From: an uncultured delta proteobacterium
Lineage (GTDB): Bacteria > Desulfobacterota > BSN033 > UBA1163
Length of the DNA: 64,000 nt
Assembly: GCA_963827685.1 (NCBI GenBank)
Contig: CAWHBU010000006.1
Span: 256,001 to 320,000 of the forward strand
Direction: 5' to 3'
In this document: positions 7,512 through 55,528 of the stretch, piece by piece
Layout of the letters: each line of letters begins with the position of its first letter
Numbering within the stretch: position 1 is the first letter of the stretch
The notes under the pieces: model-generated
Database searches by the model: none
The model's input: the letters and a program-made list of their open reading frames with translations, nothing else
What the model was told of the DNA's origin: nothing
Made by a program: the position numbers and the translations under genes

Positions 7512-8889
7512 ATGCGACGAACAGTTGGAATCACGATCCTGGTAGTTATCGGGCTGGTGGTGATCGGTGGCGTTGGGGTGTGGTGGTTCCGGACCAAAGG
7601 GGACAAGGGGCCGAGGTTACGCACGGTGCCGGTGAAACGGGGCGATCTGGCGGCGACGATCAGCGCAACGGGCACGGTCGAACCAGAGGCAGCAGTGGAC
7701 GTGGGCGCTCAGGTTGCGGGGGTGATTATCGCCTTCGGCAAGGACAAACACGGGAGGGATATTGACTGGGGATCGGTCGTGGATGCGGGCACGGTACTGG
7801 CGAAAATTGACGATTCACTATACGCCGCTGCCGTGGAAACTGCTAAGGCCCAATTCCAGCAGGCCGCCGCCAACAAGATCAGCGCCGATGCCAATGTGCT
7901 CCAGATGAAAGCGAGGTTGCTGCAGGCCCAGGCGGACTGGAATCGGGCACAGAAGCTCGGTCCATCCGACGCGTTATCACAGAGCGCTTACGACCAGTAC
8001 CAAGCCAATTACGAGGTCGCCAAGGCCAATCTGGCGGCGGCCGAGGCCGCCGTCGAGCAAACGAAGGCAGCGGTGGCCCAAGCAAAGGCCAGCCTCACCA
8101 CCGCGCAGATCAATCTCGGTTACTGTACCATCAAGTCGCCGATCAGAGGTGTGATTGTTGACCGGCGAGTTAACATCGGCCAGACAGTCGTGTCCAGCCT
8201 GAGTGCGCCGAGTCTGTTCCTCATTGCGAAAGACCTTAAGCGCATTCAGGTTTGGGTGTCGGTCAACGAAGCCGACATCGGCAGCATTTCTAAAGGCCAG
8301 CCAGTGACGTTCACCGTGGACGCGTATCCCGACCACGTATTCCAAGGGAAAGTCGGCCAAGTTCGGCTCAACGCGACGATGACGCAGAACGTCGTCACTT
8401 ACACCGTCGAGGTGGATACCAACAACGACGACGGCAAACTGTTGCCCTACATGACAGCCAACGCGCAGTTCAAGATCGGCCGTCGGCAAGGCGTGCTGCT
8501 GGTTCCGAATGCGGCGCTGCGTTGGTCACCGCGGCCCAACCAGATCGCGCCGGCACCTCGCCAAACGCCCCACGCTCCGGCCGGCTCCTCGAGCCGGGAA
8601 AGTGCCGGTAGGCTTTGGCCCCATGGGTGTGCCGCTGGCGCATGGAACCATATGGGTCGAGCAAGGCAAATTTGTCCGGCCTGTCCGCGTGAAAACCGGG
8701 CTGACTGACGGCACATTGACAGAGGTCGAAGGTAAGGATTTGACCGAGGGCCTGCGCGTGGTCGTTGGGGAAGCGACGCAGGAAGCCGCAGTCGGCCCAA
8801 GCGCTGACCGGAGTCCGTTCACGCCCCAAATGGGGCGGGGGCCACGTCAAGGCCAGAGTCGCCCGGACGGTCCGGGTGGTGAACGCTGA
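7512..8889 (+). pseudogene. macA: MacA-like efflux periplasmic adaptor, one frameshift near 8530-8640
   Basis: ATGTVEP, VGAQVAG, TIKSPIRG, NEADIG motifs; C-terminus VKTGLTDG continues in the 8509-8889 frame. Confidence 0.85.
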
Positions 8890-8913
8890 TGTTGGCGGAG
8901 GAGTGACCCGATC

Positions 8914-9621
8914 ATGGATTTGATCGAACTGCGGGACATTCACAAGACGTACCATCTCGGTGAGGTGGATCTGCCAGTGCTCAAAGGCGTATCGCTGAAC
9001 GTCGCCCACGGCGAACTCATGGCGTTGATGGGCGTCAGCGGCTCCGGCAAAAGCACACTGATGAATATCCTCGGTTGCTTGGATCACCCGACTTCAGGCG
9101 AGTACTGGCTGGACGGCCACGAAATCTCCGGGCAGACGGCAAAGGAACGCGCCCGGCTGCGGAATCGGATAATCGGGTTCGTTTTTCAAAACTACAACTT
9201 GCTGCCGCGCACGACGGCGTTGGAGAACGTCTTGATGCCGCTGAGCTTACACCAAGGAGAACCTCAGTGAGCATCAAAAGAAACAGCGCGCCGCCGAGTT
9301 GCTCCTGAAAGTTGGCTTGGCGGATCGCATTAATCACCAGCCGTCTCAACTTTCCGGCGGCGAACAGCAGCGCGTGGCGATCGCCCGGTCGCTGGTCAAC
9401 CGGCCACGGGTGCTCCTCGCTGACGAGCCGACCGGCAACCTCGACTCGCGCACCAGCGAGGAACTCCTCCAGATGTTCCAGCAGCTCAACAGCGCCGACG
9501 GCATCACCATCATCCTCGTCACCCACGATCCCGGCGTGGCACAACACGCCCAGCGGATCATTCGCATCAAGGATGGCCTCATCGAGAGCGGCACGGGTCC
9601 ATCCAAACCCGGAGGTGCCGC

Positions 9622-9625
<4 letters not shown>
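8914..9625 (+). pseudogene. MacB/LolD-type ABC ATP-binding protein, one frameshift near 9250
   Basis: Walker A GVSGSGKST in first frame; LSGGEQQRVAIAR, LLADEPTG, VTHD in second frame. Confidence 0.9.
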
Positions 9626-10987
<1,362 letters not shown>

Positions 10988-10995
<8 letters not shown>

Positions 10996-12478
10996 GGTAG
11001 CACTGATGAATGAGAAAGAACAACCGCGCTCCGTTTCGGTCTTGGTAGCGGCGGTGGGTTTAGCCGTGTTGGTAGTAAGCGGGTGCATGGTCGGCCCGAA
11101 TTATCATCCGCCGCAACCGACAGTCCCCACTACATGGGTCGGCGTGACGGAGACGCCGACTGGCCAACCGTCTGTGGCCACTGCGCAGCCAGCCGACCTC
11201 ACGCAGTGGTGGCAGCAGTTCAACGACCCGACATTGACCGCGCTGGTCGAGGAAGCGGTGAAGACGAACCTCGACCTGCGGCTTGCCGAGGCGCGCTTGC
11301 GCCAAGCCCGCGCCACGCGGGGCGTAGCCGTGGGTGGTTTGTGGCCGGCGGTCACTGCCTCTGGCAGTTACCAGCGATTGCACACGGCGGGCGTCACGCC
11401 GGACAACCAAGTACAAAATCTTTATCAGGCGGGTTTGGACGCTGTGTGGGAACTCGACCTGTTTGGCGGCTACCGCCGCAATGTCGAATCCGCCAACGCC
11501 AACATCCGGGCCGCGATCGAAAATATCCGCGACGTGCAGGTCAGCCTTATTGCCGAAGTGGCGCTCAATTATATCCAACTCCGCGGTTACCAGCAGGAGA
11601 TCCTGATCGCGCAAAACAATCTGAAAGCCCAGCAGCAAACCTCTGAGATCACTCATAAACGATTGGACGTGGGTTTCGCCAGTGCGCTCGACGCCGCCAA
11701 CGCCGACTCTGACGTCGCGACGACTGAGTCTCAAATCCCGGTCTTTGAAACCGCCGCGCAACAATCCATCTACGCGTTGAGTGTGCTGTTGGCCCGGCCG
11801 CCGGCGGATTTGTTGAAGCAGTTGTCGCCGACGGGCAACCTGCCCAGCGTGCCAGCGCAAGTCCCCGCCGGTTTGCCGTCGGACTTGCTGCGGCGCCGGC
11901 CCGACATTCGCGAGTCTGAGGCGCAACTGCATGCCGCCACCGCCCAAATCGGTGTCGCTATCGCTAACCTCTTTCCTAGGTTTTCACTAACCGGCACGGT
12001 GAACTGGCAGAGCAACCTGCTGCGCACGTGGTGGACTGAAGCCAGCCGCTCGTTCGGCGTCGGTCCCTCGGTGAGTTGGCCGATTTTCCAGGGCGGCGCG
12101 ATTGTGTCGAACGTACGTTTGCAGAAGGCGCTACGCGACCAGGCGTTCATCGCGTACCAGAAAACAGTCCTGGCGGCGTTTCAGGATGTCGAGAATGCGT
12201 TGATTGCGTTTGCCAAGGAACAGCAGCACCGCAAGGCGCTTAACGACGCCGTTGTCGCCAACCGCAAGGCCGTGGACTTCTCATTGCAGCTTTACACCGA
12301 GGGCCAGATCGATTTTCTCAACGTGCTCAATGCCCAGCGTTCGCTTTACGCCTCCGAAGACGCGTTGGTGCAGAGCGAGCGGAACATCGCCACCGATCTC
12401 ATCGCCCTCTACAAAGCCTTGGGCGGCGGTTGGGAATCCGTGCCGTTTGGTAAGTTGGACACTACTCAGGGAAAATGA
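10988..12478 (+). CDS. TolC/NodT-family efflux outer membrane lipoprotein
   Basis: Lipobox VSGC-MVGPNY; WELDLFG; LPSDLLRRRPD; LYKALGGGW. Confidence 0.95.
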
Positions 12479-46006: not shown

Positions 46007-46936
46007 TTACCCGGTTCGGTCTTTTGGGTCTGTTTCCTCTGCTGTAATACCGTAGACATTATAGGAGGGGGGGATCCCTCTTTTTTCGGCTGAGATGCTC
46101 ATCTCTTTGTAGGACGGATGAGCCTTGCGATTATGAGCAATGAGTGCCTTCACCACATCCCATCCTATCTTATTCCGTTTCGCCATTTCAGTAATCTCCT
46201 CAAGGGCTGTTCGATTATCATATGCTGAAGATCGATAAGGCCTAGGCATAACGAGGGCATCGTAAATGTCGCTAACAGCGATGATTTCCACTAACGGATC
46301 CTTAAGCGGGATGCCTCGTGGATATCCCGAACTATCTCTTCTTTCATGATGATCAAAGGCCACCTTGCAGGCGAGGTGTTGGGTGTTTTTGTAGTAATAG
46401 CTGAGTAGCACATAGCCTGCTGCCGCGTGATGTTCTAAAGAACCCCGCTCCGTTTTGGTGAGAGGCGTCGTCTTCTTCAGAATGTGCAGGGGCACGCAGA
46501 TTTTACCAGTGTCGTGGGTGGGACCGGTTGCGGACAGCCGGATACACCCCTCGTAGTCGGGTATCAGATCTCTTGCCAAAAGGGTAGACAAGGCAAACAC
46601 CATGAGAACATGAGTATAGGTGTACAAGTCATGCTGCCTAAAATAGTCCAGCGATTGTAGAATGGGGATGGGAAAACGAACTGTTTCTAAAAGGTTCAAG
46701 AGATCACCGATTTGCTTTTTGTCTGAGAAAATTTGTGTATAAGGAGGGCTGCTGAGAAAATTTAAACAGTCCTCTTTAACCGAACCGTACAATAGGAGGG
46801 GATATGTCTGATAGGAATCCGCCCTGTGCGAATCAATAAGGGCATCTAATGTCTCCTCTGTCACAAGGGTCCCAGGAGGGAACAATAATTGATTATCGAG
46901 TGTCCATATCGGATGCTGAAGTGTTAATCCTGGCAT
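46007..46936 (-). CDS. HD-GYP domain phosphodiesterase
   Basis: HDTGK, HHERRDSSGYP, DIYDAL...RPYR. Confidence 0.92.
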   Translation of the reverse strand: MPGLTLQHPIWTLDNQLLFPPGTLVTEETLDALIDSHRADSYQTYPLLLYGSVKEDCLNFLSSPPYTQIFSDKKQIGDLLNLLETVRFPIPILQSLDYFRQHDLYTYTHVLMVFALSTLLARDLIPDYEGCIRLSATGPTHDTGKICVPLHILKKTTPLTKTERGSLEHHAAAGYVLLSYYYKNTQHLACKVAFDHHERRDSSGYPRGIPLKDPLVEIIAVSDIYDALVMPRPYRSSAYDNRTALEEITEMAKRNKIGWDVVKALIAHNRKAHPSYKEMSISAEKRGIPPSYNVYGITAEETDPKDRTG

Positions 46937-47208
46937 AAAGGAAGACCTTCGGCTGCTAACTTATCATTGTGAATAAACGGGTGTCAATACATTTTAGAAA
47001 AAAAGGATCCCGATAAAAAGGGGTGGTCATTCGATCATTGATAGAGAAGAAAAACTGTAAAGGGATGACTCTATAGGAATACCCGTCAATCCCCTCCCTA
47101 ATTTTTCTAAAATGGATTGAAAGTTTAAAATAGATGGGTAAAAACCATAATTTCGGCAAGATTAACGATTGGTCGCAGGGCGAAAGGAGTTGATGAATAG
47201 AAGTTAGA

Positions 47209-47234
47209 GGGGAAGGACAGAAAAGTCCTTCCCC
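47209..47234 (-). terminator. Hairpin after the FadL-like gene
   Basis: GGGGAAGGAC-N6-GTCCTTCCCC; weak U tract. Confidence 0.55.
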
Positions 47235-47242
47235 CAGGATGA

Positions 47243-48475
47243 CTAAAATCTCCAGCTTAACCCAACCTCGAACGAGTCTTCCTTGAGCTTTGAGCCAAGC
47301 GTTACATTGGGCCCACCTGGACCACCAAAATTTGTCCCTGTTTCAGAGATCTTTTTCTCAAATGCATGCGTGTACCCGAGATTTATTGAAAACTTCTCGC
47401 TAAATTCGTAGCCTATACCAAAAGTCAAATGAGTCTCTACAATAGCCGGGAATCCGATGATTCTCAGATATTCGTACCCGAACGTGGAAGTGGGTACACC
47501 CTGGACGGTAGTCATTGACGCTGCATTGAATCCATTATGTTCCTTAACCGGGTTTCTCCCGTAATTGACACCCCCTCTTAAGAAGAGTTTTGGTATAGGG
47601 TTATATTGCGCGCCGAGTGAGAACACATACTGGTCCCTCCAGTCAAAGTCTTCATAGCCATTGGCATTAGACCAGTTAATCCACTTGAAATCGCCTTCTA
47701 TCAATAGCTTCTGAAAAGGCGAATAGGCTATTCCGAATCCCAGAGTCTGTGGCATTTGGAGCTTCAGGGTATCCCTGGTGCCATCACCATTAAAGTCAAA
47801 GACCCTCTCGTGCCTTATCGTTTGTGGCGTGACATAAGAGAGGCCTAAGGAGACCGGCCCGATTTTGTAAATGGCGCCAAACTGAAATCCAACGTTATAG
47901 CCGGAAGAAGTCCCGGAGCCGAGATCGAGGGCGGCATAATCCAGCTGAACGTTTGCCCCGACTGAAAGATTATCCGTGATCATATAGGCCAGATTAGGAG
48001 CAAATTTCATGACCTGATACTGTGTAAATACCTCTCCTGCGGGCCCTAAAATTGTATTAAGCCTGTCTCTATAGTCAACACCCAGTCCTGAGGTACCATA
48101 CGCTGCAATCCCAAACCTCAATCTTGAGGTAATAGGTGTTGATAGGCCTATCGCAGGAACAATGAAAACGTTTGACTGACTTCTATCGCTACTAATACCG
48201 AACCCAGGGACCTCTACTTTTCCGTGGGTCGCGGGGAGAAAGACTGTTCCTGCAAAATCAACTTGTGAACCGGGGCAGTAAGGCCCAAAACACATGCCTG
48301 CAGGATTTTCAAAAACTGCACTGATAGAATCTTGAGGAGCGGCAATTCCAACCCCTCCCATTGACCTCGCGATGGGCCCTATGGCTATGAAATTATCCCC
48401 ATTCGTAGCGTTGGCAATGCCACCCATGCTGAGCAGAAAGACAAACGGTATGGTCACAAAAAATAGTCTCTTCAT
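47243..48475 (-). CDS. FadL/TodX/OmpP1-family outer membrane channel
   Basis: Signal peptide; ATNG..IGP.ARSMGG..A, ENPAGM hatch motif; terminal F. Confidence 0.9.
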   Translation of the reverse strand: MKRLFFVTIPFVFLLSMGGIANATNGDNFIAIGPIARSMGGVGIAAPQDSISAVFENPAGMCFGPYCPGSQVDFAGTVFLPATHGKVEVPGFGISSDRSQSNVFIVPAIGLSTPITSRLRFGIAAYGTSGLGVDYRDRLNTILGPAGEVFTQYQVMKFAPNLAYMITDNLSVGANVQLDYAALDLGSGTSSGYNVGFQFGAIYKIGPVSLGLSYVTPQTIRHERVFDFNGDGTRDTLKLQMPQTLGFGIAYSPFQKLLIEGDFKWINWSNANGYEDFDWRDQYVFSLGAQYNPIPKLFLRGGVNYGRNPVKEHNGFNAASMTTVQGVPTSTFGYEYLRIIGFPAIVETHLTFGIGYEFSEKFSINLGYTHAFEKKISETGTNFGGPGGPNVTLGSKLKEDSFEVGLSWRF

Positions 48476-48647
48476 TTTCTCCCTCCTTCTTTGAATTTTC
48501 AAATATGAACGAACAACCGCTTACCGTTCTTTATTCTTCACCCCCTTTCTCCCCATCCCCATTTGATTTAACTTATTCTACTCCCGTCCTCTTTCTTCCC
48601 ATTTCAATCGTATATGGCGTAAGATTTTAATCGGTGTGGATCACCGA

Positions 48648-49895
48648 TTATTCCAGAACCAAAGCATTTGCGACCATGTTGCTCAGGAACTCCACCTTGA
48701 CTCCCATATTGTATCTCTCATTCAGAAACCCTAACTGTGTGTGGCAGTTCTCGCAGCCCGTGGCCACAATGGCTGCCCCTGTCTCTCTGATCTGATTGAC
48801 CTTCGCCTTCCCTGTCTTTTCCCTAAATTCCTCATTTTCTAAGGCAACCAGTCCTCCACCCCCTCCACAACATAAGCTGTATTCTCTGTTAGGAGTCATC
48901 TCTATGAATTCGGAAGTCAATTGGTTAAGAACATACCGAGGTTCTTCGATCACCCCACCATTGCGGGCAGACTGACAGGGATCATGATAAGTGATCACCC
49001 CATTGATTCGATCCTTTTCCACCCTGATCCTCCCCTCTTGGAGATATCTCGCCATGACCTCGGCGATATGAGAAACCTCAAAAGGTTGTTTCCCAACGAG
49101 ATGCTTCATGACCCGAAAGGCTGTCCCACATTCACAGATCACCACTTCTTTCACCTTAAGCCTGATGGCCTCGTCAATGATTCGCTTCGCAATGAGTTGG
49201 GTTTTTCTTGGATCGCCCACAAAGGCTCCAAAGTTGACCGCCTCAAAGAAGCTGAGGGTCCAGTTCTCCCTGGCCGCATTCAAGATGGAAGCCGTTGGAA
49301 CAATCGAATGTGCCCCAGCCAAAGCAACATAGAGGATGTTCGCCCCTTCAACATCTAAAGGAATGATTTGGTCAGACTCACCTCTCCATTTGGCGATGAC
49401 ATCCTTTTCCAGATTCTTAATCCCCTGAATAAAAGACTCTTTGTAAAGGTCAAGGCTTTTCCCTTTCTCGAGGGAAGCATCGGCCAGCATGGATAGAACC
49501 TCAGGTTCACTCTGATTTCCTATCAGGAGCAACTTGGCAATCGATTGAATCGCCTGGGTATCGATGCCAAAAGGGCAGTACATCATACATCTCCGACACC
49601 CTGTGCAGGAATACGCCGCCTCATAAAGTTGTTTCATCAACTCATCATTAAGTTCTGTGGCCTCCCCCCAATAGGGGAATAGTCTGCCGCTCAGTTTGAA
49701 ATAACGTTTATAAATCCTTCTGACTACCTCAGCCCGCCAAGAGGGGATATATTCGAGCTTCGGAACGGAGGCATACGCGAAACAGGCGTCCTTGCAGAGA
49801 CCGCATCGAGAGCAGACTTCAAGATAATATTGTGTCGGTTTATCCAGTTTTGATCGAAAGAGGTCGAGAAGCTTTTTCTTTTTCCCTTTATCCAC
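48648..49895 (-). CDS. HdrD/DsrK/TmcB-like Fe-S protein with CCG domain
   Basis: CSRCGLCKDAC, CTGCRRCMMYCP, ECG, YHDPC, CCGGGGG, CENC. Confidence 0.9.
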   Translation of the reverse strand: MDKGKKKKLLDLFRSKLDKPTQYYLEVCSRCGLCKDACFAYASVPKLEYIPSWRAEVVRRIYKRYFKLSGRLFPYWGEATELNDELMKQLYEAAYSCTGCRRCMMYCPFGIDTQAIQSIAKLLLIGNQSEPEVLSMLADASLEKGKSLDLYKESFIQGIKNLEKDVIAKWRGESDQIIPLDVEGANILYVALAGAHSIVPTASILNAARENWTLSFFEAVNFGAFVGDPRKTQLIAKRIIDEAIRLKVKEVVICECGTAFRVMKHLVGKQPFEVSHIAEVMARYLQEGRIRVEKDRINGVITYHDPCQSARNGGVIEEPRYVLNQLTSEFIEMTPNREYSLCCGGGGGLVALENEEFREKTGKAKVNQIRETGAAIVATGCENCHTQLGFLNERYNMGVKVEFLSNMVANALVLE

Positions 49896-49897
49896 GA

Positions 49898-50638
49898 CTA
49901 ACTCCTCTTAACGGCGTTGGAAAAAAACGCAAGTATTGAATGCGTCACCTTGCTGAACGGAAAGTAAATGAAGAAAATATTGGCCAGGAAAACATGCATA
50001 ACCAGAATTACCTGGTGGGGGGACCCCGAAATCTCGGCTGGGACGGTAGGTTGGAAACGAATCATGCTTCCTAAGTAAGTCCGGTAGGCTTCTAAGGGGA
50101 TGTCAAACCCGTAACTTGAATAAAGCCTTGCCAGATTCATGTGAGCACCAAAGAATGCGGTAACCAAGAGTCCTAAGATGAGGATGAAATCCTCAGGAAC
50201 CGATAATTCTCGGTATGGGCTCCGGAATCGGCGAAAGAGAAAATAAAGCAGGGAAAGCACCAATAATAGACCCACAAAGCCCTTCCCAAGAAAGATCTTG
50301 TGTTTCACAAATTGAATCACCTTCAAATCGGCAATCAGTTCGAGATGACCGAGAAACAAAAAGAAAATGACTATATGGAAGAGACCAAAAAAAAACCAAT
50401 AGACCGGGTCTTTCTTCCTCGTTACGTCTGGAAAGAGAAATACGTCACTCAATATAGCCAATAACTTGGATCGCTTTTTGGGGAAGACGCGAAGGGTTAT
50501 TGCCTTTGGTTTTGGTGCCAAGCCCATTTTGATCAAGCGCAAGATGGTCCCGACAATAAAAATAAATATAGCAGTGTAAAGCATGGGAACCATCACAACG
50601 TAATAAAAGTTATCCGCAAAAAGATGAAATGAATTCAA
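49898..50638 (-). CDS. NarI/DsrM-like membrane cytochrome b
   Basis: About 5 TM helices; FH..GH and MH...FSKVTH heme-ligand pattern; TTG start with GGAGG RBS. Confidence 0.85.
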   Translation of the reverse strand: MNSFHLFADNFYYVVMVPMLYTAIFIFIVGTILRLIKMGLAPKPKAITLRVFPKKRSKLLAILSDVFLFPDVTRKKDPVYWFFFGLFHIVIFFLFLGHLELIADLKVIQFVKHKIFLGKGFVGLLLVLSLLYFLFRRFRSPYRELSVPEDFILILGLLVTAFFGAHMNLARLYSSYGFDIPLEAYRTYLGSMIRFQPTVPAEISGSPHQVILVMHVFLANIFFIYFPFSKVTHSILAFFSNAVKRS

Positions 50639-50738
50639 CCTTTCCCTCCTTCAATGGGGTCTTAACCCTACTGTTCATTCTCAGGTGAATGATAAGACCT
50701 ACTTACTCCTAAAAAATTCTTTATCGATTCAATAAGGA

Positions 50739-50981
50739 TTATTTTACCCTCTTGATGAGGAATTTGATCAGACCATTTCCCTGTTCTGTCTTCAATATTT
50801 CATTCCCACTTGTTCGAGCCCATGCTGGAAAATCAGATAGAGAGCCGGGGTCAGTGGTGATTGCTTCTAAGATTTGCCCCACCGCTATCTCCTTGATCCC
50901 TTTGCTGACTTTGATCACCGGTTGGGGACAGGGTAATCCTTTTAAATCCATTGTCTTATTTGCTTTGATTTCTTCGCTCAT
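50739..50981 (-). CDS. tusA: TusA-family sulfur carrier
   Basis: DLKGLPCPQP, TDPGS..DFPAW. Confidence 0.93.
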   Translation of the reverse strand: MSEEIKANKTMDLKGLPCPQPVIKVSKGIKEIAVGQILEAITTDPGSLSDFPAWARTSGNEILKTEQGNGLIKFLIKRVK

Positions 50982-50997
50982 GATTTCCTCCACAAAA

Positions 50998-51594
50998 TTA
51001 AATGAAAAGTTGTACCTTGCTGTTTTTTGCCTGCTCCAAGAATGTGGCTACCCCTACATACTCCAAATTCGGATAGTCGATGAATTCTTCTTGCTTAAAA
51101 CCCATTAAGCTCATCGACATCTCACAGATGTAGATCTTGACACCCAGCTCTGCCGCCATATCCAGCATCTCATCTAACGAAGCAACATTCTTTTTTTTCA
51201 TGAGGGATTTCATCATGGAAGTCCCCATCCCCCCCATGTTCATCTTTGATAATTTAATGGCATTCCTCCCTTTGGGAAGCATGAAACCAAACATCTTTCC
51301 CATGAGATCCTTTCCCTTTGCCTTCTTCTTTGGGTCCCTCAGAACCGGCGTGCCCCAAAAGGTAAAGAACATCACGGCTTCCATTCCCATTGCCACAGAA
51401 CCCGTGGCGATGACAAAGGCAGCTAACACTTTGTCCAGATCGCCACTAAAAACAATGATGGAGACCTTGTCTTCCGCCCCCGGTTTGATGTTTTCAATCT
51501 GCTTCCTAAGTTCTTCCATCCGCTTTGCCAGATCGTCAACCGTCATAATTCCCTTGTTGTGACCTTCTACTTTTGTTGCCAAAATTTCAGCCAT
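50998..51594 (-). CDS. DsrE2-family sulfur transferase
   Basis: FSGDLDK, FFTFWG, ICEMSM, GVATFL. Confidence 0.92.
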   Translation of the reverse strand: MAEILATKVEGHNKGIMTVDDLAKRMEELRKQIENIKPGAEDKVSIIVFSGDLDKVLAAFVIATGSVAMGMEAVMFFTFWGTPVLRDPKKKAKGKDLMGKMFGFMLPKGRNAIKLSKMNMGGMGTSMMKSLMKKKNVASLDEMLDMAAELGVKIYICEMSMSLMGFKQEEFIDYPNLEYVGVATFLEQAKNSKVQLFI

Positions 51595-51682
51595 TGCCGT
51601 TCCTCCTTTGCATTTTTATCTCTATTATGAGAAGGGTCGTCCATCCCACCAGCAGGGAATCGGACCGAACGCAACATGAGCT

Positions 51683-51952
51683 TCATTTCATGTTAATGAA
51701 CCGATATATGGCTTTAGCCATATCATCTACCTTAACCTTCAAATCTGCCTCGTCGCGGATGCTTGGTATTGAGGAGGCACAATCTCTTATGCACCCCTCC
51801 ACAATGATTATCCCCAGTCTTCGGGCCGCAGAGGAAAGGGCTGAAATCTGTATTAGAATATCGGTACAATTACTGTCTTTTTCCACCATCCCCCGGATTC
51901 CACGTGCCTGCCCTTCAATCTTTCTAAGGCGAGAGAGTATATCCTTCCTCAT
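51683..51952 (-). CDS. CsoR/RcnR-family repressor (CstR-like)
   Basis: RLRKIEGQARGI, CTDILIQISA, CIRDC. Confidence 0.92.
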   Translation of the reverse strand: MRKDILSRLRKIEGQARGIRGMVEKDSNCTDILIQISALSSAARRLGIIIVEGCIRDCASSIPSIRDEADLKVKVDDMAKAIYRFINMK

Positions 51953-52021
51953 TTCCTCTGTTAAAGATGAAGCTTGAATTTTAGATTCTCCTTTTATCTA
52001 TGATATAATCTATAAAAATTA

Positions 52022-52093
52022 TTGTATAATTCCGATACAACCCTACCCCCCCATGGCATAATAATTATTAATAAAAAACTAACCTCCTGTCAA
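52022..52093 (-). promoter_or_regulatory. Promoter and candidate CsoR-family operator
   Basis: TTGACA (52088-52093)-N17-TAATAA; TACCCCCCCATGGCATA at 52044-52060; TTGTAT-N7-ATACAA at 52022-52040. Confidence 0.6.
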
Positions 52094-52240
52094 GTTTTAA
52101 TTTTCTTAACTTGCTAGCGTTAAAACAATAATAGTATTATATAGTTATGTCACTTCCGCTGTAGTTTTTACCCTCTCTTCCTGATGCATAGAAAAAATGG
52201 AGTATTCCCTTTTCATGGAGCTGCTGGTATAGTAAAGGGA

Positions 52241-52585
52241 ATGATTCGTGTTCTGCTGGTCTTGTTTTCTATTATCATTTTCTCTGTCCTTCTGGGGCAT
52301 TTGACCTCTGCCAAAGCCCAGGAAACAGGTACTCTGTCAGTTACAACGACGCCTGTAAGTGGAGCTATTTATGTTGACTACGTTTTTAAGGGCACCAAGT
52401 TCTGGAGTGGGGATTTGAACGTTGGATCCCATGTGGTCTCATTTGGCAATGTAGATGGCTACATCGCGCCACCCATGCAAACCGTTACGGTCATTGCAAA
52501 TCAAACGTATTATATCGTCGGTGCTTACAGAAAGTTGCTCTCCCTACCTGACCCGGTCGTAATGAGCAGCATCTGGGTTCATTGA
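52241..52585 (+). CDS. PEGA-like domain exported protein
   Basis: Signal peptide; GTLSVTTTPVSGAIYVD..GSHVVSF..GY. Confidence 0.75.
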   Translation: MIRVLLVLFSIIIFSVLLGHLTSAKAQETGTLSVTTTPVSGAIYVDYVFKGTKFWSGDLNVGSHVVSFGNVDGYIAPPMQTVTVIANQTYYIVGAYRKLLSLPDPVVMSSIWVH

Positions 52586-52994: not shown

Positions 52995-54251
52995 TTACTT
53001 ATTACTATTCCCTTCGCGATATGTTTTAAACCATAAAGAAATATTAGATCCACCATTGGAGGCACTATTGAGGATAGCTGAACGCATCTCTTTTTTCTTC
53101 GATTGACCGACAACCACATTCAAATCACATTGTGGATCGAGATGCTCTGTTCCGATCGTCGGAGGAATTATCCCGTGATAAAGACTTAACGCCAATCCAC
53201 AAGCTCTGATCCCTCCCGAGCCGTCGAACTCCCCGAGCGCTGATTTAAGGCTGCTGACAGAAATCTCCTTCGCTCTTTCTCCAAAGATCTTTTTGATCGC
53301 AAGGGTCTCCACGCGATCCAGATCAGGAGTGGAGTTAGCGGCTGCTGAAATATAATCAACGGTGTCGAGTTCTTGGGCTGCCAGAGACATTGCCCTGGCA
53401 ATTGAATCTCCCTTAAGATCATACCGAAGAAGTCCATCTGTGCTTCCTGCAAGCCCAACACCAGCCATCTCAGCATACACTCTCGCTCCCCTCTTCTTCG
53501 CATGTTCCAATGTCTCTAAGACGACAATTCCGCTTCCTTCTCCCAGGACAATCCCATTCCGATCCTGATCAAAGGGTTTCATCCCTTCTGCGCCTTTTCC
53601 TCTTCCCGGTGACAGAGCGCCAAGCATCGAATAGACATGATAGAGAGGCTCGCTCAACTCATCGCCTCCTCCTGCGAAGACGACATCTGCCCTTCCCTCT
53701 TTCAACAGATGATAAGCAAACGTCATGGCCATCTCTGTGGAAGATTCTTTATGAGAGAAGGTGATGTTCACTCCCTTGATGCCATATTCGATGGCACAGT
53801 GGCTCGTGATGGCATTGGGCACAGCAGTTTGAAAGAGGAGGGGGGCTGCTCCCAGCGGACCCTCTTTTAGAAGGGAACGAAAGAACTGGTCTACGGTATC
53901 AGAACTCCCCAAACCCGTACCAATTGAAATCCCGATTCGGCTGGAATCCTCCTCCTTTAGGTTGAGACCGGAATCATCTATCCCCAATCGGACGGCTGAG
54001 ACAACGATTTTCCCGATCCGATCCATCCTTCTAAGATTAGCCGGCTTGATAAAAGCCTTAAAATCGATCTCCGAAAGTTGGGCTCCCAACCGAGAGCGGT
54101 AAGAACTCACGTCAATCCCCTGAATCGGCTTGATCCCGGAGATTCCTTGAAGGCAGTTCTCCCAGAAGGCCTCTTTACCAGCACCAATTGAGGAAACAAT
54201 TCCCAAACCTGTAATGACAACGCAATGATCCTTCGGCGAGTACACTTCCAT
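52995..54251 (-). CDS. Ketosynthase homolog lacking the catalytic triad (chain-length-factor-like)
   Basis: VVITGLG, PFD..RNG..LGEG; Cys>Glu, His>Ala, His>Glu by eye alignment. Confidence 0.88.
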   Translation of the reverse strand: MEVYSPKDHCVVITGLGIVSSIGAGKEAFWENCLQGISGIKPIQGIDVSSYRSRLGAQLSEIDFKAFIKPANLRRMDRIGKIVVSAVRLGIDDSGLNLKEEDSSRIGISIGTGLGSSDTVDQFFRSLLKEGPLGAAPLLFQTAVPNAITSHCAIEYGIKGVNITFSHKESSTEMAMTFAYHLLKEGRADVVFAGGGDELSEPLYHVYSMLGALSPGRGKGAEGMKPFDQDRNGIVLGEGSGIVVLETLEHAKKRGARVYAEMAGVGLAGSTDGLLRYDLKGDSIARAMSLAAQELDTVDYISAAANSTPDLDRVETLAIKKIFGERAKEISVSSLKSALGEFDGSGGIRACGLALSLYHGIIPPTIGTEHLDPQCDLNVVVGQSKKKEMRSAILNSASNGGSNISLWFKTYREGNSNK

Positions 54252-54307
54252 TTTCCTATTAATTCTTAACCCCCAATTATTGAATTAAATTACCGACTCC
54301 GAACTCA

Positions 54308-55528
54308 TTACTCCGAACTAAATTTCTTAAACACCAAGCACACATTGTTGCCCCCGAAGGCGAACGAATTTGAGAGGGCCACCCGAACATCCTTCTTAAT
54401 GGATTGATTAGGTGTATAATTCAGATCACAAAGGGGATCTGGTACTTCATAGTGAATGGTCGGAGGAATGATCCCAGTCTTCAGGGTCATGACGGTCGCC
54501 ACAGCCTCGATACCACCCGCAGAGCCAAGGCAATGTCCTATCATGGATTTGATTCCGCTGATGGGAATCTCTTTTGCCCTTTCTCCAAAAACCCGTTTGA
54601 TCCCCCGTGTCTCGGCAATGTCATTGAAAGGCGTGGCCGTGCCATGGGCATTGATGGTATCGACCTCCTCTGCGGAAACCCCCGCATGAGCTAAAGCAAG
54701 GCGGATCACCCTTTCTACACCCTCCCCGTTGGGCTCCGGTGCTGTAAGATGATAGGCATCGGCGCAGATCCCATATCCTAAAAACTCCGTATGAATCGGG
54801 ACTTCTCTCTTCAATGCATGGCCCAGTTCCTCAAGGATGAGGATGCCAGCTCCTTCACCGATGACCAGACCCTGTCTCCTCTTGTCGAAGGGTTTGCAAC
54901 TTTCAGGATCAACCAGCTTCAGACTGCTGAATCCGCTATAGGAGACCTCGCAAAGAGAATCACTTCCACCCGTCACCATCACATCCGCCAAACCCATTTG
55001 AATCATCTCATAGGCTACGCCAATAGAGGCGGAACTTGAAGAACAGACTGTCGCGGTGGTCGTTCGGGGTCCTTTCAAGCCTGATTCAATGGCGATGTGG
55101 TCCGTCGTAGTGGCGAGGGAATAAGAGATAAGAAGGGACGGAGAGGACTTCTTCGTTCCTTGATAATAGTCTCTAAAATATTTTTCGACTGAGAGAATGC
55201 CGCCGGAGCCTGCCCCCAATACGACCCCTACCCTTTCCTTATTATGCGAATCCTGGTTAAGACGGGCAGATTTCCACGCCTCTCTGAAGGCAATCAGGCC
55301 GAATTGATCACATCGGGAGAGGCGTCGAGTCTCCTTTTTTGAAAAATGGGCCCCAGGGTCCAAATGGGAAACCTCTGCAGCAATCTTCGTCCGGTAGGCA
55401 GAGGGATCAAAGACCGTAATCTCCTTTGTCCCATCTCTTCCCTCGATGAGGGAGTTCCAGAACTCAGGGAGGTCATTTCCCACGGCACTAACCACACCCA
55501 GACCTGTAATCACAACCCTTTTCTTCAT
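54308..55528 (-). CDS. fabF: beta-ketoacyl-ACP synthase, FabF-like, intact triad
   Basis: TVCSS, NAHGTAT, KSMIGH, SNSFAFGG. Confidence 0.93.
   Translation of the reverse strand: MKKRVVITGLGVVSAVGNDLPEFWNSLIEGRDGTKEITVFDPSAYRTKIAAEVSHLDPGAHFSKKETRRLSRCDQFGLIAFREAWKSARLNQDSHNKERVGVVLGAGSGGILSVEKYFRDYYQGTKKSSPSLLISYSLATTTDHIAIESGLKGPRTTTATVCSSSSASIGVAYEMIQMGLADVMVTGGSDSLCEVSYSGFSSLKLVDPESCKPFDKRRQGLVIGEGAGILILEELGHALKREVPIHTEFLGYGICADAYHLTAPEPNGEGVERVIRLALAHAGVSAEEVDTINAHGTATPFNDIAETRGIKRVFGERAKEIPISGIKSMIGHCLGSAGGIEAVATVMTLKTGIIPPTIHYEVPDPLCDLNYTPNQSIKKDVRVALSNSFAFGGNNVCLVFKKFSSE

Follow-up and report, generated by a model that had tools for sequence, protein, structure and literature searches.

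In this study we analyzed a stretch of 64,000 nucleotides (hereafter, the window) from an uncultured delta proteobacterium (assembly GCA_963827685.1, contig CAWHBU010000006.1, positions 256,001 to 320,000), in which six consecutive co-oriented open reading frames (ORFs) lie on the minus strand between 47243 and 52093. A preliminary description had read these ORFs as a candidate sulfur operon composed of a CstR-like regulator, the sulfur carriers DsrE2 and TusA, a cytochrome b, an iron-sulfur protein with a CCG domain and a FadL-type channel. The ORF list, combined with assignment by Pfam and NCBIfam, confirmed the positions, the strand and the family of each gene. The features of the operon and of related loci are shown in Table 1. 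Hereafter, the genes of DsrE2, TusA, the cytochrome b and the DsrK-like iron-sulfur subunit (CCG protein) are called the core.

Table 1. Features of the operon in the window and of the regulator and channel genes at related loci
Feature	Position or loci	Strand	Evidence or remark
Sigma-70-type promoter-like site, TTGACA-18-AATAAT	52064..52093	minus	11/12 matches, best in promoter scan
G-tract operator-like sequence, directly 3' of the -10 element	52035..52059	minus	candidate CsoR-family repressor site
CsoR-family regulator, 89 aa, Cys29/Cys54/Cys58	51683..51952	minus	PF02583, 74 bits
DsrE2B-like sulfur-carrier protein (predicted), 198 aa, single invariant Cys157	50998..51594	minus	PF13686, 181 bits
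TusA-family sulfur carrier, 84 aa, Cys22 in Cys-Pro-x-Pro	50739..50993	minus	PF01206, 75 bits
NarI/DsrM-type dihaem cytochrome b, 246 aa, 5 predicted transmembrane helices	49898..50638	minus	PF02665, 36 bits
DsrK-like cytoplasmic iron-sulfur subunit (CCG protein), 415 aa	48648..49895	minus	two 4Fe-4S ferredoxin motifs and one complete CCG domain
9-bp hairpin over the stop codon of the DsrK-like gene	48628..48650	minus	-11.9 kcal/mol, z = -3.4; without T-tail
FadL/TodX-family outer-membrane channel, signal peptide	47243..48475	minus	PF03349, 94 bits; ORF open from TTG 48502
11-bp G+C-rich hairpin, directly 3' of the FadL stop	47208..47235	minus	-22.5 kcal/mol, z = -5.1
MarR-family gene directly upstream of DsrE2	10 loci: L047, L049, L050, L058, L064, L065, L066, L071, L074, L083	same as core
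CsoR-family gene beside the core	5 loci: window, L042, L043, L045, L046
PAS/sigma-54 activator beside the core	4 Desulfarculaceae-type loci	divergent
PadR and FMN reductase, downstream of the core	2 spirochaete loci	opposite to core
FadL gene, besides the window	L050, L051, L053, L063, L066, L067, L071, L083	same as core	directly downstream of the core

The genes are packed tightly at two places, that is, between the cytochrome b gene and the CCG gene (2 nt) and between the DsrE2 and TusA genes (4 nt). Elsewhere the spacing is wider: 88 nt separate the regulator from DsrE2, 100 nt TusA from the cytochrome b, and 172 nt the CCG gene from FadL, this last gap containing the 9-bp hairpin. The promoter, the operator-like site and the end hairpin proposed earlier were all found around the genes, each with a reservation of its own: the promoter scan of the window was unspecific (15 sites, compared with 8.7 +/- 3.3 in shuffled sequences), the operator-like sequence is degenerate, and the T-tail of the end hairpin is weak. 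A TTGACA -35 element with a spacer of 17-18 nt to the -10 element heads the operon in the window and also in L042, L043, L045 and L046, and in all five loci that have a CsoR-family gene a sequence centred on six or seven G residues follows directly after the -10 element. In L043 and L046 this sequence is clearly palindromic; in the window it is degenerate, and the inverted-repeat search gave nothing there at 52059-52035. The stability of the terminal 11-bp hairpin was equalled in 0 of 200 shuffles, and the terminator scan did not list it; judged from its sequence, it is the probable end of the transcript. The true start of FadL is likely ATG 48475, which stands behind the ribosome-binding site GGAGGG.

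To see how far this arrangement is kept, related loci were collected with one genome per species. The scan gave 59 loci with a relative of the CCG protein, 43 of them at 45% identity or more. As for the loci with at least 1.9 kb of upstream sequence, all four core genes were present in 31 of 32, L068 being the exception. The synteny predicted in the preliminary description thus holds for the four-gene core; for the ends of the operon it does not, since a CsoR-family gene was found in only 5 loci and FadL in 8 of 35. We therefore rejected the six-gene unit as such, its regulator being interchangeable and its channel present in a minority of loci. The order of the core genes in the window and most loci is DsrE2, TusA, cytochrome b and CCG protein, and in L045-L049 it is DsrE2, cytochrome b, TusA and CCG protein. 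One locus (L042:2684-8209) has a CsoR-family gene followed by the latter order and then by a second cytochrome b-CCG pair in tandem, its two CCG copies being 86% and 89% identical to the window protein. If a layout of this type lost its first cytochrome b gene and its first CCG gene, the window order would result.

Two further arrangements were observed near or outside the core family. At L064:5316-6915, genes for a thioredoxin-domain protein and for a DsbD/CcdA-type membrane protein come after the core in the same orientation, which is another thiol-disulfide link. In a genome of the same genus as the window genome (G002, L040:8011-11113), a PocR/HTH regulator, a TusA (52% identity), a 222-aa ORF that has no Pfam match and may be a membrane anchor, and a DsrK-like protein of 460 aa (42% identity) lie together, and this set has no DsrE2. 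Because the gene of this 42%-identical DsrK-like protein adjoins a TusA gene, the linkage with TusA reaches beyond the core family.

By the titles of the records, the carriers of the core belong to Thermodesulfobacteriota (Syntrophaceae, Desulfarculaceae, Desulfomonilaceae, Desulfovibrionaceae, Desulfomicrobium and Desulfobacteraceae), Spirochaetota/Leptospirales and Bacillota/Clostridia, and all of them are metagenome-assembled genomes (MAGs). Orthologues with 77-86% identity were detected in 7 of 40 relatives, which belong to other genera and to another family. No orthologue was found in the 14 genomes of the same genus, among which G002 holds only the 42% paralogue. In the phylum sample an orthologue is carried by 22 of the 400 other genomes (about 1 in 18) and by 13 of 254 genera.

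In our reading the module is horizontally mobile. The window cytochrome b shares 64-79% identity with that of L043 and with the second copy of L042, 42-51% with those of the FadL-bearing loci, and only 31-37% with the cytochromes that accompany the closest relatives of its own CCG protein. Because these identities disagree with the relationships of the CCG protein, the window operon is a mosaic. At L083:3465-11454 the genes for MarR, DsrE2, TusA, cytochrome b, CCG protein and FadL lie between smpB and a phage-type integrase gene, and the whole looks like an integrated island; the tblastn alignment of this copy shows stop codons within DsrE2 and FadL. A tblastn search with the CCG protein against the plasmids of PLSDB gave no match. 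Among metagenome proteins, 2982 of the 8000 candidates scored matched at E <= 1e-60. The 120 matches listed are 81-95% identical to the window protein and are named 'Fe-S oxidoreductase', '(Fe-S)-binding protein' or, occasionally, DsrK. The sequencing runs that hold the locus are DNA runs from freshwater sediment, peat, wetland and sediment.

The residues expected in a redox complex are intact in the two membrane-complex proteins and in the carriers, as the preliminary description had it, and they are also conserved across homologues. The cytochrome b belongs to the NarI/DsrM-type family (PF02665, 36.4 bits against a cut-off of 22.9), and its matches to the equivalog models of TmcC, DsrM and HmcE all fall far under their cut-offs. 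It has five hydrophobic segments, and the haem-ligand His pairs stand on segments two and five. His88, His98 and His233 are conserved in 40 of 40 homologues and His215 in 97%, and the members of the two pairs stand 10 and 18 residues apart, which is also the spacing in NarI. The CCG protein (PF02754, 55 bits) has two CxxCxxCxxxC motifs and one complete CCG motif (C...CC...CxxC). Its residues Cys97/100/103/107, Cys256, Cys307, Cys342, Cys343, Cys381 and Cys384 are invariant in 41 of 41 sequences, and Cys28/31/34/38 are kept in 98% of the homologues.

Then the position of the CCG protein among related iron-sulfur proteins was examined. Its best NCBIfam match is DsrK (NF045796), with 263.7 bits against a cut-off of 400, and four other CCG proteins of the cluster family score 224-267 bits on the same model. 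The scores on TmcB (NF045724; 204.3 against 735) and HmcF (NF045711; 203 against 750) are lower, while the genuine TmcB rows of our data set reach 746-827 bits and one HmcF row 902 bits, and these are located elsewhere in the tree. The tree was calculated by maximum likelihood (IQ-TREE, LG+C20+F+G4) from 65 proteins, that is, 37 of the cluster family, 10 DsrK from the dsr loci of relatives, 13 TmcB, 2 HmcF and 3 others, and it was rooted at the midpoint for drawing only. The labels come from NCBIfam scores, and the DsrK rows of close relatives, at about 343-353 bits, are slightly under the cut-off but lie within dsr operons. As proposed earlier, the phylogeny was compared with DsrK, TmcB and HmcF. 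The CCG proteins of the cluster family form one clade (ultrafast bootstrap 100, approximate likelihood-ratio test 99) outside the DsrK clade (95 and 87). Its neighbours are the single 42%-identical protein of G002 and then DsrK, and TmcB (100 and 100) and HmcF lie across the midpoint root. The exact placement of four long branches (L076_other, L087_HmcF, L021 and L085) is unsure. That is, the family is a clade of its own beside DsrK and apart from TmcB and HmcF.

AlphaFold modelled the CCG protein with confidence (pLDDT 85.4, pTM 0.86). In the Foldseek search the nearest structure was EtfD of Mycobacterium smegmatis (9ojn; E = 1.3e-11, TM 0.67), followed by a model of LutA and then by HdrB chains. 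The sequence-profile search of the PDB agrees (EtfD, E = 2e-17), and in the PDB sequence search no DsrK or DsrM chain was matched.

The two carrier proteins were examined in the same manner. The DsrE2 protein belongs clearly to its Pfam family (PF13686, 181 bits, gathering threshold 25) and scores 87.5 bits on the NCBIfam equivalog DsrE2 (NF047629), of which the cut-off is 210. Cys157 is its sole cysteine and is conserved in 33 of 33 homologues, and its best solved relatives are 3pnx (8e-32) and 2qs7. According to the report on Metallosphaera cuprina, DsrE2A has two conserved cysteines and DsrE2B has one (PMC4175335). Because of the single invariant cysteine, the similarity to 3pnx and 2qs7 and the score under the equivalog cut-off, the window carrier is, by its sequence features, DsrE2B-like rather than of the Allochromatium DsrE2A type. 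TusA is a member of PF01206 (75 bits, cut-off 28.6) with Cys22, Pro23 and Pro25 invariant in 37 of 37 homologues, and it stays under the cut-offs of the equivalog models of Escherichia coli TusA (47.6 against 78) and YedF (50.3 against 79).

The genome has two other TusA genes, both outside the window in a one-strand cluster of selenium type (contig C6:488900-493500, that is, locus L107:2902-7464). This cluster consists of a YedE-like transporter (PF04143), a TusA, a class-V aminotransferase of the cysteine desulfurase or selenocysteine lyase type, a TusA-DsrE fusion resembling YedF, a Se/S carrier (PF11823) and a SelD-like protein of the AIR-synthase family. A YTD sulfur-disproportionation cluster was considered for these TusA genes and rejected, since they belong to the yedE-yedF-selD selenium cluster.

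We next considered the relation of the core to the Dsr pathway. It had been stated that dsrAB and dsrC are absent. This is true of the window; it does not hold for the genome (5.23 Mb, 14 contigs, 94.5% completeness, 8% contamination), in which dsrA'-dsrB-dsrN-dsrC-dsrM-dsrK lie on contig C11 (6971 bp), with a second partial copy on C12 (4194 bp). If these small contigs are correctly binned, the organism is Dsr-positive. C11 and C12 duplicate each other partly and hold the only dsrA, dsrB, dsrN, dsrC, dsrM and dsrK of the assembly; dsrA was found in only 2 of the 14 genomes of the same genus, and the two contigs may be misbinned or reflect two strains.

A wider comparison was made with 34 carrier genomes, of which 23, including the window genome, come from an even sample of 401 genomes of the phylum, 6 are further relatives and 5 came in by way of loci from other phyla or from unclassified MAGs. 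The search for dsrA was positive in 20 of the 34 and negative in 14. When 9 of these 14 were searched for DsrC/TusE, none was found in 8; their completeness, where given, is 82-93%, and absence from an incomplete MAG is no proof of absence. In one family (f3) the module is present in 4 of 5 genomes and dsrA was found in none of the 5. At the 43 related loci no dsrM, dsrJOP, dsrC or dsrAB was seen beside the core. The DsrK-like protein thus has TusA and DsrE2 as its constant partners, and since no DsrC/TusE was found in 8 of the 9 tested dsrA-less carriers, it is improbable that DsrC serves as its general substrate. The occurrence of the core where neither dsrA nor DsrC/TusE was found is consistent with the earlier idea of a self-contained, quinone-wired system that would act on sulfur bound to TusA and DsrE2.

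The regulator beside the core varies with the lineage. A census by Pfam of 115 flanking ORFs of related loci found, besides the CsoR-family gene of the window, MarR-family genes with an invariant Cys-Cys pair and sigma-54 activators (Table 1). The ten MarR proteins are mutually orthologous; all ten have the Cys-Cys pair, and nine have a third cysteine. Sulfane-sulfur sensors are known in the CsoR family (CstR), among sigma-54 regulators (FisR) and among some MarR-type regulators. All five CsoR-family proteins retain Cys29 and Cys58. At position 54, where the aligned CsoR of Streptomyces lividans (4adz) has its copper-ligand His, the proteins of the window and L042 have Cys, and those of L043, L045 and L046 have Tyr or Phe. 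Because the position aligned with His is thus Cys, Tyr or Phe, the Cys-His-Cys copper site is absent from these regulators; they belong to the CsoR family (PF02583) and lack its Cu(I) ligand set. The missing His in the window protein agrees with the earlier suggestion of a sulfur rather than a copper regulator. The more specific label CstR-like stood only in part. The cysteine pattern fits it, but the sequence of the window regulator scores higher with copper CsoRs (50 bits) than with the CstR structures 7mq1/7mq3 (37 bits), which the PDB names csoR. Having Cys at all three ligand positions, the window regulator could bind Cu(I), and a CstR-like function of it is plausible.

The FadL protein is a member of its family (PF03349, 93.7 bits, cut-off 29.7) with an N-terminal hydrophobic segment. 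It scores 14.8 on the equivalog of E. coli FadL (cut-off 585), and among solved structures it comes closest to CymD (6e-8) and TbuX (8e-7), two channels for aromatic hydrocarbons. The 8 of 35 loci that have FadL directly downstream on the same strand are counted among those with at least 1.3 kb of downstream sequence. Seven of these eight fall in one 9-member subclade of the tree together with the FadL-less L064 and L065 (L067 was left out of the tree), and the window is the sole FadL carrier within its own subclade. Linkage in 8 of 35 loci as well as in the window suggests that the association of FadL with the core is real but optional. Just past FadL, on the opposite strand, L063 (4745-6013; Desulfovibrionaceae) and L067 (3349-4614; Desulfomicrobium) have a rhodanese and metallo-beta-lactamase gene of about 421 aa. 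This gene recalls persulfide dioxygenase-rhodanese fusions, and as a neighbour it hints at sulfane sulfur. For the import of S8 or polysulfane through FadL, which the preliminary description had proposed, we found nothing beyond family membership, and the nearest solved relatives point to aromatic hydrocarbons; that the channel admits S8 or an organic polysulfane is speculation. Our literature search found no role of FadL in the uptake of elemental sulfur or polysulfide, apart from one fatty-acid-transporter label in a figure legend.

The neighbours of the operon look unrelated to it. Downstream there is an HD-domain protein (HD_5, 309 aa, 46007-46936), and upstream, on the opposite strand, a 133-aa ORF without a family match (52184-52585), beyond which two ORFs at 52995-55528 resemble beta-ketoacyl synthases as far as their family can be assigned by eye. 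An Rfam search of the whole window gave no family at threshold, rRNA included. The G+C content at 8001-12000 is 0.60-0.61, compared with about 0.46 in the remaining window.

From what is known of the DsrMK, HdrDE, NarI and TusA/DsrE persulfide-carrier families, we think that the core encodes a quinol-dependent reductase of sulfane sulfur or heterodisulfide bound to TusA and DsrE2, and that it is induced by thiol-reactive sulfur. We put the probability of this reading at about 0.5. The core probably links carrier-bound sulfur to the quinone pool, independently of the sulfite-reductase pathway. The system would consist of a two-subunit membrane complex of the DsrMK/HdrDE type with its own pair of single-cysteine carriers, namely TusA with Cys22 and the DsrE2B-like protein with Cys157. 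In the cytoplasm, sulfane sulfur from S8, polysulfide or organic polysulfanes would be loaded as a persulfide onto one carrier. The thiol of the second carrier would then attack, with release of H2S or formation of a bridged species, and a TusA-S(n)-DsrE2 heterodisulfide or trisulfide would be left as the counterpart of the DsrC trisulfide. We suppose that the two carriers form such a species jointly because each of them has one conserved cysteine, compared with two in DsrC. The CCG subunit, by analogy with known families, would act on a disulfide, persulfide or trisulfide at a non-cubane cluster and would reduce the bridged species with electrons that come from menaquinol through the cytochrome b. 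If the topology is NarI-like, the reaction would be electrogenic, and the module may serve both as a sulfur-reducing electron sink and in the detoxification of reactive sulfur. Expression would be kept off by a thiol-based repressor, in the window the CsoR-family protein, at an operator that overlaps the promoter until thiol-reactive sulfur releases it, and the FadL/TodX channel would be an optional addition in some double-membrane hosts that may admit a hydrophobic substrate.

In favour of this reductase count the families and invariant residues of its parts, the linkage of the core genes across three phyla and in two gene orders, the separate clade and the occurrence where dsrA and DsrC/TusE were not found. 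Further, three unrelated types of regulator, two of them with conserved cysteines, stand at the same position beside the core, the operator-like site is conserved in the CsoR-type loci, and the fold of the CCG protein resembles the quinone-linked EtfD and HdrB. Reduction to sulfide is the direction we favour because many carriers have no evident enzyme that would oxidise the carrier-bound sulfur further. We agree, however, with the preliminary description that the direction of electron flow and the role of the system cannot be read from the sequence, and several points weigh against our reading. EtfD has the same architecture of cytochrome b and CCG domain and reduces quinone, so that the fold does not tell the direction. 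The only DsrE2B tested biochemically, that of M. cuprina, was unreactive to six sulfur compounds and took no thiosulfonate from TusA (PMC4175335). In the phylum sample, dsrA is present in 17 of 23 carriers, 188 of 378 non-carriers and 205 of all 401 genomes; there may be a Dsr link in these hosts, and the mild enrichment may be explicable by shared ancestry. The flanking ORFs scanned include no inner-membrane sulfur importer of the YeeE/YedE type beside the core, and no RNA run is found among the sequencing runs that hold the locus.

Other explanations have to be weighed against the same data. The complex might work in the oxidative direction, with the CCG subunit oxidising carrier-bound sulfane sulfur or thiols and passing the electrons through the cytochrome b to menaquinone, the direction suggested for the DsrMK of sulfur oxidisers and for enzymes of the EtfD/EMO type. 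Among solved structures the closest fold is indeed that of a quinone-reducing enzyme, a reverse operation of DsrMK-type complexes is proposed for sulfur oxidisers and cable bacteria (PMC13293266), and dsrAB, which 20 of 34 carriers have somewhere in the genome, could process an oxidised carrier product. Where no dsrA was found (14 of 34) and, in 8 of 9 tested cases, no DsrC either, the trisulfide would then be a dead end, and no sHdr, Sox or lipoate-binding genes were seen among the ORFs flanking the core, so that we regard oxidation as improbable. To the same degree we doubt a chemistry of thiosulfonates, in which the membrane complex would cleave a TusA Cys-S-thiosulfonate reductively to sulfite and sulfide. 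The thiosulfate would be derived from tetrathionate or imported, and the module would be a cytoplasmic quinol-dependent thiosulfate/tetrathionate reductase. Archaeal TusA and DsrE3A do bind thiosulfate from tetrathionate, while DsrE2B took no thiosulfonate in the same study (PMC4175335), and the TusA-family protein YeeD partners thiosulfate importers (PMC13047784). No YeeE/YedE importer is linked to the core, however, and in many carriers no dsrA was found for the disposal of sulfite, other sulfite reductases not having been searched for.

Slightly less probable still, in our estimation, is a stress module under copper or electrophile regulation, for the repair of protein or low-molecular-weight disulfides or for the handling of copper or selenium. 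It would fit the Cys at all three ligand positions of the window regulator and its closest solved relatives, the copper CsoRs, as well as the MarR and PadR regulators and FMN reductase beside other copies, the about equal scores of TusA on the YedF selenium-protein and TusA models, and the relatedness of FadL to channels for aromatic compounds. On the other hand, the third ligand is replaced by Tyr or Phe in 3 of 5 CsoR-family regulators, no copper ATPase or chaperone was seen adjoining any copy, and selenium has a separate yedE-yedF-selD cluster in this genome; moreover, TusA and DsrE2 are dedicated sulfur-relay families, and two copies have the rhodanese/metallo-beta-lactamase gene beside them. 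Hardly probable at all is that the complex is a spare DsrMK, a second copy that reduces the DsrC trisulfide while TusA and DsrE2 merely feed DsrC. The best NCBIfam match is DsrK, some databases label the homologues so, and the window genome holds dsrC and dsrAB. But the score of 264 stays well below the DsrK cut-off of 400, the family is a separate clade, it never stands beside dsrC or dsrJOP in the loci examined, and DsrC/TusE was not found in 8 of 9 dsrA-less carriers.

The proposed quinol-dependent reductase can be compared with several known systems. DsrMK, the centre of the DsrMKJOP complex in dissimilatory sulfite reduction, resembles it in having a NarI-type dihaem cytochrome b and a cytoplasmic subunit with two ferredoxin-type clusters and a CCG domain, and it is at once the sister clade of the CCG family in the tree and its best NCBIfam match. 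DsrMK is presumed to link the quinone pool to protein-bound sulfur species, as we presume for the module. In contrast to the DsrK of relatives, which has about 530-550 aa, the CCG protein has 415 aa; it is tied to TusA and DsrE2, never to dsrC, dsrAB or dsrJOP, and some of the genomes that encode it gave neither dsrA nor DsrC in our searches. HdrDE of methanogens and TmcBC and HmcEF of sulfate reducers likewise combine a membrane cytochrome b with a CCG iron-sulfur subunit, and the CCG domain matches HdrB by sequence and fold, whereas the module has only one complete CCG motif and no cytochrome c or CoM/CoB context. EtfD/EMO, the electron-transferring flavoprotein (ETF):menaquinone oxidoreductase of 9ojn, is another quinone-linked enzyme of cytochrome b and CCG type; it is a single fused polypeptide, has ETF as partner and reduces quinone, and no etf genes lie beside the module.

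On the side of the carriers, the rhd-tusA-dsrE2 genes of Allochromatium vinosum place TusA beside a DsrE2-type protein with a genetic tie to a heterodisulfide-reductase-like enzyme, as here (PMC11094781), and dsrE3A-dsrE2B-tusA of M. cuprina, which show the same pairing of carriers, adjoin sHdr (PMC4175335). Those sets serve cytoplasmic sulfur oxidation with rDsr or with soluble sHdr and lipoate-binding proteins, whereas the module has a membrane-bound DsrMK-like pair, occurs in anaerobes, and has no rhodanese, DsrE3, sHdr or LbpA genes. Pcar_0429 of Pelobacter carbinolicus is a fusion of a disulfide reductase with rhodanese, TusA-like and DsrE-like parts that was proposed to be an S0 reductase, and its proposed sequence of persulfide, disulfide and reduction is a precedent for the module (PMC3543383). 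It is, however, a soluble fusion dependent on NADH and FAD and itself uncharacterised, whereas the module would be quinone-linked and membrane-bound and is made of separate proteins. With regard to regulation, we compared the operon with the cst system. In Staphylococcus aureus, CstR is a CsoR-family persulfide sensor with two conserved cysteines and no copper-ligand His, and its operon has a gene for a TusA-type carrier. The cst effectors (persulfide dioxygenase and sulfide:quinone oxidoreductase) need oxygen, whereas the module would be quinol-linked and anaerobic.

The full-text literature, to which subscription reviews on TusA and DsrC do not belong, gave no account of a cluster of DsrE2, TusA, cytochrome b and a DsrK-like protein, and such a cluster does not appear in the available parts of recent papers on type II DsrEFH, YTD clusters, sulfur disproportionation, Dsr evolution and sHdr sulfur transferases. 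An earlier mention of it is possible. What is new, in our view, is a DsrMK/HdrDE-type enzyme with a dedicated pair of carriers and its own regulation; the type of enzyme itself is known.

A more far-reaching form of our reading, which we hold only as a tentative and rather doubtful proposal, is that the four-gene core is a hitherto unrecognised, DsrC-independent, energy-conserving membrane quinol:TusA-DsrE2 heterodisulfide/trisulfide reductase for zero-valent sulfur in the cytoplasm, and that in some hosts FadL is the first dedicated entry through the outer membrane for S8 or organic polysulfanes. If this is true, TusA and DsrE2 take the part of DsrC for a DsrMK-like complex, and anaerobes of sediments, peat and wetlands that have no Dsr pathway, among them Syntrophia-class bacteria, spirochaetes and clostridia, use zero-valent sulfur for respiration in the cytoplasm or get rid of it there.

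DsrMK-type complexes are regarded as acting on DsrC. A sister family linked to TusA and DsrE2, which occurs also where DsrAB and DsrC were not found, would extend the concept of the 'bacterial heterodisulfide' to a second carrier system and would supply a testable role for DsrE2B-type proteins. The module is common in metagenomes, and its habitats of freshwater sediment, peat and wetland are places of cryptic sulfur cycling. If zero-valent sulfur is reduced there with quinol, the module would be a route of sulfur reduction or detoxification that surveys based on the markers dsrAB, psr and sre do not count.

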